A DNA stretch of 44,244 nucleotides from a virus (Duplodnaviria > Heunggongvirae > Uroviricota > Caudoviricetes): the IMG/VR virus record IMGVR_UViG_2896595138_000007, positions 1 through 44,244 of that record; one strand, 5' to 3'. The notes beneath the pieces were generated by a model. The model did not search any database and was not told the DNA's origin. It worked only from the letters and a program-made list of their open reading frames with translations. Positions 5,982 to 10,817 of the stretch are shown piece after piece (within the stretch, counting starts at the first letter, position 1; each line of letters opens with the position of its first letter). Made by a program: the position numbers and the translations under genes.

Positions 5982-6854
5982 TCAGCTGATACTGATACCT
6001 GCTGTGGATTTTTTCATCACCACAACCAGCAGATCGCTGATACTGGTTGCTGGTGTCCAGTTATTCGCTCCTGATGAAGATACGGTGAATGTCAGTGTCA
6101 GCGTCCCCTGTCCGGCAGGCATATCTATAACTGAGGAAAATACGCCCTGAGCATCCGTCGTGGACTGATTAAAAATCTCCTGACCATTGCGGGTCACTCT
6201 TAACCGGCAGGTTGAATACCAGTATGACTGTTGGTTATTACTGTTGAAATTCTCATGCTTACCACCGCGGAATAACACTGGAGGTATCATGACCTGCCGG
6301 TCAAACTTCTGATCATCACTGATTCTTACCGTGATGGTGCCGCTGGCATAACTGTTCGTGCGGGGGAAAGACTTGCTGACCGTTTTGACAATATCGCCTT
6401 CAATCTGGTTGGCTGACAGTTTCCCCTTAATCTGACAGTTCTCATTAATCGTGACGTTGTTGAGCGTCCCGGAGTTCGCATTCACACTGCCACTGATATC
6501 CGCATTTTTAGCGGTCAGCTTTCCGTCTGATGTCAGGGAAAATGCCGGTGGATTTCCACCGCTGGTAATGGCGGGGCCGTCAGGCGCTTCAGGAACACGT
6601 CGTTCATGAATATCTGGTTGCCCTGCGCCACAAACATCGGCGTTTCATTCCCGTTTGCCGGGTCAATAAATGCGATACGGTTAGCGGCAACCAGAAACTG
6701 ACTCAGTTTGCCTTCCTCCGTGTCCTCCATGCTGAGGCCAATACCCGCGACATAATGTTTGCCGTCTTTGGTCTGCTCAATTTTGACAGCCCACATGGCA
6801 TTCCATTTATCGTTGGCATCCTTCCACTCTTTCGAAAACTCCTCCAGTCTGCTG
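5982..6854 (-). pseudogene. J: Host specificity protein J, distal segment after the IS4 insertion; C-terminal receptor-binding domain differs from lambda J
   Basis: [17 protein letters not shown]...FLKRLTAP continues lambda J after residue 846; a frame break near 6560 is followed by [16 protein letters not shown] and a divergent C-terminus. Confidence 0.8.
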
Positions 6855-8280
6855 TAATGCCAGTCAGTTAAGCAACTGACTGGCTCTTTTTCGGGGCTGT
6901 GGGGTATTTCCAGGGCCTCTCCTTTACCACTCTCGGGAAGGCCCTTCCCCTTCTCGTCGGTAATTTCACAAGTTGTCCCATACTTGCAAGATCGCGCATC
7001 AGCTCCGGTATACGTCCCGGTGAAGCGCCCTGCAATGTCATCAGCATTCTCATCACCATTCCGCATGATTCTGAGAAACTCAGTTGATTCGGCCAGTAAC
7101 CTTTCAGATGTTCCGCCATTTTAATCATCTGATATCTCACCAGATTATAAGCCAGTAAGACACCCCACAGCTCTTGCTCCACAAGCTCCGGCTTTTTACT
7201 TCTCAGCGTCAGCCTGCTCAGTTGCATCGTCTGTTTTATCTCCCTGTATCCCAGTTCGATTTCCCAGCGATGACTGTACAGATCCGCCATTTCTCCTCCG
7301 GGGAAGCGCATGGCGTCCGTCATCGACGTCAGCAGATGGCAGACTTTTCCTTTGCGCGTCACGGTCAGCAGGCGGGCTGTCACTTCATTTCCCAGTCCCG
7401 GCCACTTTTTTCGTGCCTGCGGGCTGGTTTTCAGCTTCACCAGATGATCGCCTTTACCCAGTTTTCTGAGCTCTTCATATTGCGCTCCCTTTCTGAGAGG
7501 TATCATCCAGTGGCGGTGTTCTCCCGCCAGGCTCCAGGCATTTAACAGTCCCAGTGAGTAATAACCTTTATCCATTAACGTCAGAGTGTTATCGCCGGTT
7601 TGTTCTATAAGTTGCTCAGCAAGCTCATTTTCGCTGTTCTTCATCGTGCCGAAGGCTGCAGCCGTCAGCAGATGGCTGGTCAGTTCCATCTGGCAGACCA
7701 TTTTGACCTGCGGGTAGAGCGCCGGGTTCCCGGCATGTGTCTGGCGGGGGAAGGCTGCATCGTTCTCTGGTGTATCCGGTGTGCGCCAGAACACACCATC
7801 GATGGCCAGCAGGGTCAGGCCGCACCAGTGCGGATGCGGCGTGGCGTTATGCCAGAGCTGAGCTGTTTTCGTGAACACGCGGCGGACAGCCTCACTTCCC
7901 AGGCGCTGGCGGGCCTGAATAACGGCACTGGGGGCAACGAAGGGGCGATTGCCCGGCAGCATGATGTCCAGGCGATTCACAATCTGGTGAAGAGGTTCTT
8001 TACGCTCAAGCGCCATGCCAACAATACACCAGACCATCATTTCGAGGGAAGACGGCGCTTGCGTAGCGTTACAGTACCTGATTCGGCAAGGCAACGAGAG
8101 ATGAGTTCGGGGTCGAGGTAATCCCCCAGAGAAGTCAGTGGGTTACGCAGAGAATCGTAACGGGATACCAGATCAAGAGCCTGTCCAATGTGCATAAAAA
8201 AATCCGGAAACAAGTGAGCGTTTCCGGATTCTTACACAGCCACTGGATCGGTCAACTGATCCTTAACTGATCGGCATTAC
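6855..8280. mobile_element. IS4 insertion sequence inside gene J
   Basis: Terminal inverted repeats TAATGCC(A/G)(G/A)TCAGTTAAG at both ends; 12-bp target-site duplication TCCAGTCTGCTG at 6843-6854 and 8281-8292; encodes the IS4 transposase; about 1426 bp. Confidence 0.9.
6868..8195 (-). CDS. insG: IS4 transposase InsG (DDE family), apparent 1-nt frame break near 8090
   Basis: ORF 6868..8094 matches the IS4 transposase from [26 protein letters not shown] onward; the [17 protein letters not shown]-terminus starts at 8195 in another frame, separated at a C-run. Confidence 0.85.
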
Positions 8281-10817
8281 TCCAGTCTGCTGGCGTTATC
8301 CTCCGTCAGCTCGACTTTTTCCAGCAGCTCCTTGCCGAGATGGGATTCGGTTATCTTGCCTTTGAAAAAATCCAGGTAACCTTCCGCATCATCGCTCGCC
8401 CGACCGACGGCCTCCACGAATGCCGATTTGCCAACGGTGTTCACCCTGCGGATATAAAAGTAATAATCATGGCCCGGTTTGATATTGATACTGGCGGCTA
8501 TCCAGTACAGCGCCGTACCAAGATAGCGGGCTGTGGTTTCAACCTGCCTGATATCCGCAATCCGCTTTTCCGAGAACCAGAACTCAAACTGTACCGTCGG
8601 ATCATAAACCGCAAGATGCGGCGTGGCGGTTATCTGAAAATAGCCCGGCGTCAGCTCAATCCGAGACGGCGCTGCCGGTGCGGCAATCCGGAACGATACC
8701 GATGCCGGATCGCCCTGCTGTCCCCACGCATTTACCGCCCGGACTGTCAGCCTGTAGTTCCCCAGCGCCAGTTGCGTGAAGCGGTATGTGGTTTCCGCCG
8801 TCCGGGCCGTGCTGACCAGCCGCTCACTGCCGTCATCCGCTGCCACGGTCAGGCGAAGCAGGAAACTCACGCCCTTCACCACCTTCGGCGTGTCCCAGCG
8901 GGCCAGTACCTGATACTCCCCGCTGTCTGCGGTGACTTCGGCAGTCAGGTGCTGCACCGCTGGCGGCGTGACACCATTCACCGTGCCGCTCTGGTCGCCG
9001 TCAAAGTGCGCCCCGTTATCCACGATGGCTTCTTTTTCCGGTACATGCTGCACGGCAGTGATGGCATACGTGCCGTCATCGTTCTCACGGATACTCACAC
9101 AGCGGAACAGGCGCTGGCGCAACGTCGGCAACTTCAGCCCCCATACGCTGTATCCGGCAACGCCGTCAGGAACACGGCTCACTTTTACCTTCACGCCGTC
9201 GGTGACGGACTGAACCTCCACGCTGACCGGATTGCCACTTCCGTCAACCAGGCTTATCAGCCTGGTGCCGGAGGATGGCAGCGTGATTTCACGGTCGAGC
9301 GTCAGCGTCCGGGTCTGGCTGTTTACCGCCAGCACGCGCCCGCCGATGCTGATACCGGCATAGTCATCATCACAGATTTCAATGACATCGCCCGGCACAT
9401 GGCGAAGCCCTTCAGCACCCACGCTGAAATCCACGGTCTGCGTCTCCAGCAGTTCCGTTTTAATCAGCCACAGCCCGGCGCGGTGTGCCTGCCCCCGGCT
9501 GGTACAGCCAAAGGCATCCATCTTCGTGACATTACGACCGTAACGGGCAATGGCCTGCGTATCTTCAACAAGCTCTGTCGCCGTCTCCCAGCCGTTGTTC
9601 GGGTCAATCCAGTTCACCTCAACGGCATTATGGCGGTCCTTCAGGGCGCTGAAGCTGTAGCGGAACGGCGCGCCATCATCCGGCATCACCACATTACTGC
9701 GGTTATAGGTCCACACCTTATCTGATGGTCGGTCCTGCACGAACGTCAGCGTCTGCCCGTTCCATACCGGCATACAGCGCATCGCCGAGCAGAAATCACT
9801 GAGCACATCCCACGCCTTACGCTGCGTGGTCAGCCAGGCATTACAGGTGATGCGCGGCTCCGTGCCGCCAAAACCGTCCGGCACCGACTGGTCGCAGTAC
9901 TGGCCGATGACATACAGCGCCCATTTATCCACATCTGCCGCACCAAGACGTTTCCCCATGCCGTAGCGTGGATGGGTCAGCATATCCCACAGACACCAGG
10001 CCATGTTATTGCTGTATGCTGGCTTAAACGTTCCGTCCCAGATACCGCTGTATTGCCGCGTCTGCGGGTTATAGTTCGACGGCACCTGCAGAATACGCCC
10101 GCGCAGATGATAATTACGGCTCACCTGCTGGCTGCCGAACTGCTCCGAATCCACCTGTACGCCGACCAGTGCCGTGTTCGGGTAGCACTGTTTCACATCG
10201 ATGATTTCGGTGTATGACGACCAGAGCGTTTTGTTCTGCAGCTGGTCTGTGGTGCTGTCCGGCGTCATCCTGCGCATCCGGATATTGAACGGGCGCGGCG
10301 GCAGGTTACCCACCACCACCGATGCCAGATACTGTGAGGTGGTTTTGCCTTTAATGGTGATGTCTTTTTCCGTCACCCAGCCACCGTTACGCTGTATCTG
10401 AACCAGCAGGCGGACTTCCGACGGATTCCGGTCCCCCTTTGAGGTGGTTTCCACCAGTGCCTGCACACCGAAGGTCAGGCGCAGTCGGTCGATGTTTGCC
10501 GACGTGATGGTGCGGGTGATCGGCGTGTCGTATTTCACTTCCGTACCCAGCACCGTCTCGGAGCCGGAGGATTCAAAGCCCTCCGGCGGCGTCTGCTCCT
10601 GCTCACCTGCCCGGAACACCACCGTGACGCCGGAGATATTGGTATTCCCCTCACTGTCCAGCACCGGCGTACTGTTCAGCAGCACACTTTTTAATCCGTC
10701 CACCGGACCTTCAACCGGCCCTTCACTGATGACGTCTATCACGCTCAGCATCTGGGATGATTTCAGGTTGTCCTTCGCTTCGCGCGGGGTATGCCCATTA
10801 CTGCTACCTTTACCCAT
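8281..10817 (-). pseudogene. J: Host specificity protein J, proximal segment (lambda J-like), interrupted by IS4 after codon 846
   Basis: [34 protein letters not shown]... is near-identical to lambda J over 846 aa; the stop codon is supplied by the IS4 terminus. Confidence 0.9.

Follow-up and report, generated by a model that had tools for sequence, protein, structure and literature searches.

IS4 insertion in a mosaic lambdoid prophage: a split tail-tip gene J with a predicted OmpC-type receptor-binding domain

We analysed a stretch of 44,244 nucleotides (nt) of viral DNA, IMG/VR record IMGVR_UViG_2896595138_000007, the whole of which we refer to as the window. It carries a prophage in which J, the gene for the tail-tip attachment protein, is divided by a copy of the insertion sequence IS4 (coordinates are collected in Table 1). 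We hold it very likely that this arose by simple transposition of IS4 into the J gene of a mosaic lambdoid prophage, at a hot-spot site for the element and in a gene that carried an OmpC-type tip. Before its disruption, J would have been a mosaic of natural origin, joining a body of lambda type to a tip of A8/phi330 type that used the porin OmpC rather than LamB.

A defective IS4 copy in gene J

The gene was recognised as that of a lambda-type tip attachment protein by the full series of Pfam domains spread across its two fragments, by colinearity with lambda J and by the gene order I-J-lom. Its reading frame is not continuous, being broken by IS4 after codon 846 and again by a 1-nt deletion downstream. 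The last J codon ahead of the element is GAG (E846, 8282-8280), and the TAA stop of the 846-aa (amino acid) open reading frame (ORF), at 8279-8277, consists of the first three bases of IS4. A repeat search located the same 13-nt sequence, CTCCAGTCTGCTG on the plus strand, on both sides of the element with a spacing of 1438; read in the sense of J it is CAGCAGACTGGAG, and covers codons 842-846. Removing IS4 together with one copy of this repeat (6855-8292) leaves 3398 nt, as against 3399 nt in intact homologues, and with one C restored the rebuilt gene has 1132 codons. Since the 13-bp duplication is perfect, and since colinearity is restored by taking out IS4 and one copy, we conclude that this is a simple insertion, in which an old transposition would have cut J between codons 846 and 847 and duplicated 13 bp. 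Such a mosaic is nothing out of the ordinary. Among complete E. coli genomes, J runs uninterrupted in the listed intact matches (H5-H25), and is approximately 97% identical over both fragments.

The inserted element is a defective IS4 and not another element. Its sequence begins and ends with TAATGCCGATCAGTTAAGG...CTTAACTGACTGGCATTA, and its termini, TAATGCC...GGCATTA, are common to 39 other IS4 copies. The left and right inverted repeats (IRL, TAATGCCGATCAGTTAAG; IRR, TAATGCCAGTCAGTTAAG) are imperfect 18-bp sequences. From the IS4 annotated by RefSeq in RM10740 the copy differs by 12 substitutions and one indel, and by fewer from Shigella flexneri and E. coli copies. The eight complete IS4 copies that we took from other genomes are all 1426 bp long, one base longer than the copy in J, in which one C is gone from the C4 run at 8046-8049; the loss of this C therefore accounts both for the length of 1425 bp and for the divided transposase frame. 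The transposase domains (Pfam Nterm_IS4 and DDE_Tnp_1) are present, and the intact 442-aa DDE transposase ORF is not. To judge from its sequence, the J copy would be dead by itself, and mobile only if complemented in trans.

A preliminary description of this DNA had already recognised an IS4 interruption of J after codon 846, and the clean insertion, the 99% IS4 identity, the intact duplication and the Pfam matches of the transposase bear it out. It gave, however, a length of 1426 bp for the element and of 12 bp for the target duplication, having assigned one duplicated base to IS4. The base that precedes TAATGCC varies across the 39 other insertions and thus belongs to the duplication. Other complete IS4 copies are flanked by duplications of 11, 12 or 13 bp, a range that includes the 13 bp found here.

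What the interruption would mean for the protein can be read from the structure of lambda gpJ, which comprises hub domains, two FNIII domains, an alpha-helical shaft (including residues 841-861), a beta-prism central fibre and a receptor-binding domain (PMC11101478). As codon 846 lies within shaft residues 841-861, the break falls inside the alpha-helical shaft. The 5' fragment encodes the hub domains, both FNIII domains and the beginning of the shaft (Pfam FNIII-A_GpJ, Phage-tail_3, Ig_J and Ig_J_second), and the 3' fragment, its frame broken by the 1-nt deletion, holds the remainder of the shaft, the central fibre and the receptor-binding domain (Pfam Phage_Tail_Tip and Ig_GpJ_C). A truncated J of 846 aa would thus be expected to keep its hub and FNIII domains without the central fibre or receptor-binding domain. 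From this architecture we infer that particles, if made, would be unable to bind the receptor, and that no infectious phage would result.

The second break lies in a C run that reads GGCCCCCACC in relatives and GGCCCCGCC in the window. A frame break in the distal segment had been noticed earlier and placed near 6560; the break is present in the sequence, but some 15 nt away, at 6572-6576. It is peculiar to this assembly, and a homopolymer sequencing error may be its cause. There are two possible explanations. The first, towards which we lean with modest confidence, is that the frameshift is a homopolymer consensus error of the assembly, while the second, to which we give a somewhat less than even chance, is that it is a real second lesion in an already dead distal fragment. 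The closest intact relative found, contig L008 (E. coli 18SZHZ655Rt), is 97-98% identical over the greater part of the prophage. Where the two align well, the window shows at least 13 one-base deletions, which lie almost without exception in G/C runs of 4-6; clean one-base insertions do not occur. Among the genes that these deletions split are those for the large terminase, the ClpP-capsid fusion, the tape measure and K. One-sided deletions in G/C runs are the usual signature of long-read consensus error, and a public contig, L060, shows six of them in 1.5 kb relative to the window. Furthermore, the closest relative, IMG/VR contig L059, carries the identical and rare allele (Pro-Ala, C5 then G) in frame, and the deleted version of the run is absent from all IMG/VR contigs.

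A genuine lesion would have arisen in a fragment that was free of selection once IS4 had inserted, and frameshifts commonly arise in nature by slippage in G/C runs. One observation weakens the case for a sequencing error. The homopolymer deletion in IS4 also occurs in L059, an independent contig, together with a shared private single-nucleotide polymorphism (SNP). That deletion is thus probably genuine and inherited, and the homopolymer deletions should not all be set aside as artefacts. A 5.7-kb core flank (prfC, osmY, yjjU, yjjV) is without indels, but with no more than 10 G/C runs of at least 4 this comparison has no power. Apart from their shared features, L059 and the window differ by only three indels over 7.1 kb. 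Scanning IMG/VR for three further deleted homopolymers, we found one to be absent, one in an error-rich contig, which makes it uninformative, and one in a relative of 96-97% identity, perhaps as a natural polymorphism. As the origin of the distal frameshift, an error of the assembly consensus is somewhat more likely than a recent secondary lesion. Our verdict on J is independent of its status, the gene being already broken by IS4.

One further ORF in this region, 6533-7066 on the minus strand, begins within IS4 in a frame other than that of the transposase and leaves the right end of the element in the frame of J. If the frameshift at 6572 were an error, this ORF would extend to the natural J stop, giving a putative fusion of an IS4 leader to J residues 843-1132.

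Target preference and recurrence of the insertion

The early IS4 literature describes a strong site preference, with a target resembling AAA-N20-TTT. In order to characterise this preference independently of J, we took one genome of each species and gathered the left ends of its IS4 copies, obtaining 44 loci. These represent 39 distinct insertions, none of them in J, with eight verified right flanks. In the left flanks an A-run stops about 17 nt short of the junction and gives way to a C-rich stretch, and G is found at -4, -3 and -1. Right flanks, when reverse-complemented, look like left flanks, and the target is thus symmetric, with an A-run, about 20 bp and a T-run. The AAA-N20-TTT-like pattern is therefore seen in the collected flanks themselves, which often coincide with a terminator-like hairpin.

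From the 39 insertions, 47 half-sites went into a log-odds weight matrix, which was applied to both strands with an overlap of 11-13 bp allowed. The real J site scores 21.5 bits and ranks first among the 3398 positions of J, the next independent site scoring 10.6 bits; in the window without its insertion sequences it ranks third among 42,806 positions (mean -13.6, standard deviation 7.4). At this site the matrix chooses 13 bp as the length of the duplication. The target is near-consensus, with an A-run, about 20 bp in which the left side is rich in C and the right side in G, and a T-run. On this evidence from the sequence the J site is evidently a preferred IS4 target, and IS4 would have landed there because the stretch is close to consensus. 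The other top predicted targets, at 29719, 25332 and 9418 in coordinates of the window without insertion sequences, are intergenic terminator-like hairpins (A-run, GC stem, T-run). IS4 seems to favour DNA of terminator shape.

We surveyed 5426 complete E. coli genomes and the IMG/VR contigs for the IS4-J junction. The same junction is present in four of the genomes (RM10740, FDAARGOS_536, 21AR0173 and AREA_492) and in contig L059. The duplication is CAGCAGACTGGAG on both sides of the element in the window and in L059, and CAGCAAACTGGAG on both sides in RM10740 and FDAARGOS_536, the two alleles differing at the sixth base (G in the former pair, A in the latter). The IS4 copies are also different. 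Those of the window and L059 share the missing C at 8049 and a private T at 7861, whereas those of RM10740 and FDAARGOS_536 carry 7470A and 6955A, which are also found in an E. coli chromosomal copy, with further private changes in each. The variant 6947A is found in RM10740 and FDAARGOS_536, and also in L059. The flanking J alleles are 2-5% apart, the IS4 copies less than 1%, and J of FDAARGOS_536 has a different receptor-binding allele. Because duplications, IS4 variants and J alleles all differ, these sequences indicate at least two independent IS4 insertions at one position, in different alleles of J.

We considered whether a single ancestral insertion, spread vertically or by recombination, could give the same distribution, so that the shared site would reflect descent rather than target preference. 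The site is base-identical in all six assemblies, the IS4 copies are at least 99% alike, and the window and L059, with equal duplications, the same missing C and the same private SNP, clearly represent one event. Nevertheless, the G/A difference is present in both copies of the duplication. One mutation is insufficient to produce this, and recombination with an intact J would require crossovers no more than 7 bp from the end of the element on both sides. A polymorphism in both copies thus points to fresh duplication of a target that was already polymorphic, a state that is hard to reach later by mutation or recombination. Given also that the IS4 copies are different sequence variants, and that the site tops the ranking of IS4 targets in J under a model trained independently of it, we regard descent from a single insertion as improbable.

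In FDAARGOS_536, a blood isolate, J::IS4 lies in a very short prophage remnant (L006 1760-13244) beside sitABCD and a fragment of icd. The start of J there adjoins a lysozyme remnant, an ompC-like porin gene is nearby, and the IS4 copy has a one-base deletion different from that of the window. As a speculation that we think has little chance of being right, codons 842-846 of J might be a recurrent landing pad for IS4 at the hinge between body and fibre, and insertion there a favoured route by which lambdoid prophages are disarmed in hosts rich in insertion sequences (Shigella and strains like enteroinvasive E. coli) with their cargo kept (lom, defence genes, sitABCD); the shared IS4 might also supply homology for the swapping of receptor-binding modules.

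The receptor-binding domain

The final 167 residues had been described as differing from the LamB-binding domain of lambda, and a different receptor had been suggested. The divergence is real, but it extends over 159 residues (974-1132), the first eight of the 167-aa ORF being lambda-like. Over residues 1-973, J has 97-98% aa identity to lambda J, whereas residues 974-1132 are only about 40% identical, with small indels in the loop regions, and thus lack the high identity, receptor loops included, expected of a LamB-binding domain. The suggestion of a different receptor accordingly holds up, and can be made more specific.

Using the last 287 residues of J as the query against all PDB chain sequences, we found the best match to be 'A8 gpJ 713' (9WCA, 9WCB; E = 9e-188), followed by lambda J chains (E = 1e-120). 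Past the lambda/A8 junction, near residue 964, 167 of 168 residues equal those of A8, the sole change being A versus T in NWTP[A/T]TSIS. When 50,697 phage records were searched by tblastn for the 159-residue domain, 44 of them, mainly long-tailed Stx1a and Stx2a phages, had it at 95% identity or more. J of vB_EcoS_phi330 (PV189401) is 98.1% identical over the 159-aa query, with 157 of 160 aligned positions equal in a three-way alignment that displays J of the window as a mosaic, lambda-like in its body and phi330-like at its tip.

Both of these proteins have been tied to OmpC by experiment. A8 gpJ is one of two chimeras in which natural J C-termini were grafted to lambda J at position 964, and a host lacking both lamB and ompC (delta-lamB delta-ompC) receives DNA from A8 particles only if OmpC is provided, showing retargeting from LamB to OmpC (PMC11338833). 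On the Keio delta-ompC strain, phage phi330 fails to plate unless Plac-ompC is introduced (PMC12502783). As the domain in the window is nearly identical to these experimentally OmpC-dependent C-termini, its predicted receptor is, with fair confidence, most probably OmpC rather than LamB.

It is quite unlikely, in our judgement, that the domain used a receptor other than OmpC, or one besides it. The domain is one residue apart from A8, single substitutions in J are able to alter receptor use in lambda and phi21 (PMC11336670), and the gpJ proteins of A8 and 1A2 tell OmpC variants apart (PMC11338833). Set against this is the agreement with A8 and phi330 itself, the OmpC dependence of both having been established by knockout and complementation.

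Standing of the account and relation to known systems

Four points weigh against the account given here. The IS4 junctions and the single-base deletions are known from the assembly alone. The predicted use of OmpC draws on near-identity to two characterised proteins. For one of these, phi330, the use of OmpC was ascribed to J rather than to the side fibres by means of the authors' AlphaFold3 model (PMC12502783). Finally, the weight matrix is small (39 sites, with left flanks and eight right flanks) and assumes a symmetric target. As to the first point, copies of insertion sequences are classic points of misassembly and this assembly has many homopolymer indels, yet we think a repeat-induced chimera joining two J fragments across IS4 very unlikely, since the fragments are exactly contiguous without IS4 and one repeat, the perfect 13-bp duplication is of a length typical of IS4, and the junction recurs in other strains, namely those of the four complete E. 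coli genomes and of contig L059.

The prophage (NCBI record CP026845.1) is integrated between yjjG and prfC, and combines a CPS-53-like early region, an HK97-like head with a ClpP-capsid fusion, and a lambda-like tail end with the order M-L-K-I-J-lom-stf. We rejected the possibility that the whole prophage is lambda, as the nucleotide match is confined to the tail-end module; the remainder is of a widespread E. coli type, with yfdN/P/Q/R-like early genes, a Q antiterminator, DNA methylases and an HK97-style head. Judged against the intact relative L008, a second element, IS600, disrupts an rrrD-like lysozyme (endolysin) gene. With its IS4 copy defective and the endolysin gene split by IS600, the prophage is a remnant riddled with insertion sequences. 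The occurrence of IS4 together with IS600, and the absence of CP026845.1 from the RefSeq E. coli set, hint at a host that is Shigella-like or otherwise rich in insertion sequences, though no more than as a guess.

Some further features of the window were noted. The TIR-domain anti-phage reverse transcriptase, 534 aa in L008, is left here with only its 140-aa TIR part as an ORF, owing to an upstream deletion that shortens G5 to G4. The 116-aa product of the ORF between I and J has a lipoprotein-type signal, MNKTILFCTIIALTGC, and matches phrog_914 (function unknown), with no Pfam match and no nucleotide match in the phage collection. A 116-aa 'hypothetical protein' upstream of phi330 J proved to be unrelated to it, being a frameshifted J N-terminus in the phi330 record. 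L008 lacks the segment that holds the 186-aa ORF, which has stf on one side and the tail-fibre assembly gene on the other.

Table 1. Positions of the features discussed, numbered from the first nucleotide of the window
Feature	Position	Strand	Basis or remarks
J gene, in three pieces	10817 to 5982	minus	ORF calls
J 5' fragment, codons 1-846	8280-10817	minus	846-aa ORF 8277-10817
J 3' fragment, duplicated codons 842-846 then codons 847-1132	5982-6854	minus	alignment to intact J of 700462 and RM10740
J C-terminal ORF, 167 aa	5982-6485	minus	ORF calls
Receptor-binding domain, residues 974-1132 and stop, A8/phi330 (predicted OmpC) allele	5982-6461	minus	sequence comparison
J one-base deletion, C5 run	6572-6576	minus	alignment to 700462 and RM10740; stop at 6535-6533
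IS4, 1425 bp	6855-8279	minus	99% identity to IS4 annotated in RM10740; TAATGCC...GGCATTA ends
IS4 inverted repeats	IRL 8262-8279, IRR 6855-6872		16/18 match
IS4 transposase gene, frameshifted	6868-8213	minus	ORFs of 58 aa (8037-8213) and 408 aa (6868-8094), overlapping
Target-site duplication, promoter-proximal copy	8280-8292		perfect 13-nt direct repeat
Target-site duplication, distal copy	6842-6854		perfect 13-nt direct repeat
One-base deletions relative to L008	12282, 15700, 17075, 17407, 20216, 25086, 25523, 26020, 27570, 33003, 36820, plus 6572, 8046		
IS600 (IS3 family)	27920-29184		orfA 28817-29119, orfB 27963-28781; 3-bp duplication CAC
450-bp insertion between I and J	10849-11298		ORF 10884-11234, minus; not in L001, L008 or L059
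TIR-domain anti-phage reverse transcriptase gene, partial	1-423	plus	L057 12737-14536; cargo beside DinI
Side tail fibre gene, two overlapping ORFs	2362-5257	minus	683 aa (phage_tail_N), 283 aa (Collar and fibre repeats)
186-aa ORF	1461-2021	minus	phrog_2613, weak Macro-domain match

Our conclusion is that J is an ordinary pseudogene in a decaying prophage, the product of a routine event, and that its receptor-binding allele is common, already characterised and structurally solved, so that it adds no new knowledge of the receptor. In annotation, a single pseudogene should be entered for the two J fragments and IS4 together, and the prophage should be regarded as incapable of producing infectious particles. 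Of modest interest is that this exact site of J, present in lambda too, appears to be a strong IS4 target used independently in different lineages. It illustrates the target specificity of IS4 in a compact natural case, and helps in recognising convergent inactivation of prophages. The assembly may hold systematic homopolymer errors, and pseudogene calls made from single-base frameshifts are not trustworthy without reads.

Among the closest known systems are the J::IS4 pseudogenes annotated in RM10740, FDAARGOS_536, 21AR0173 and AREA_492, in which IS4 has the identical position and orientation in J, while the duplication allele (A rather than G), the IS4 variants and the J alleles are others. 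The element itself resembles the prototype of the IS4 family (1426 bp) in its ends, its 16/18 inverted repeats, its duplication within the 11-13 bp range, its single DDE transposase gene and its type of target, and differs in its length of 1425 bp and its frameshifted transposase. With lambda gpJ (P03749; PDB 8IYK, 8XCJ) the reconstructed gene shares 1132 codons, the close identity over residues 1-973, the order I-J-lom-stf, the set of Pfam domains and, unchanged, the IS4 target sequence; it lacks the LamB-binding allele and, unlike lambda J, stands in the window as a pseudogene, with the IS4 split and one further frameshift. A8 gpJ (Brodel et al. 2024, PMC11338833) has the same domain but for one residue, likewise joined to a lambda-type body near residue 964, but is a functional engineered fusion whose C-terminus came from a private strain collection, whereas that of the window is a natural mosaic, now inactivated. 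Lastly, the J genes of phi330, 2H10, YYZ-2008, CP-1639 and many long-tailed Stx1a and Stx2a phages carry receptor-binding alleles that are 97.5-99.4% identical in the records listed; in its body, phi330 J shares only about 65-84% identity with J of the window, and these phage genes are intact.

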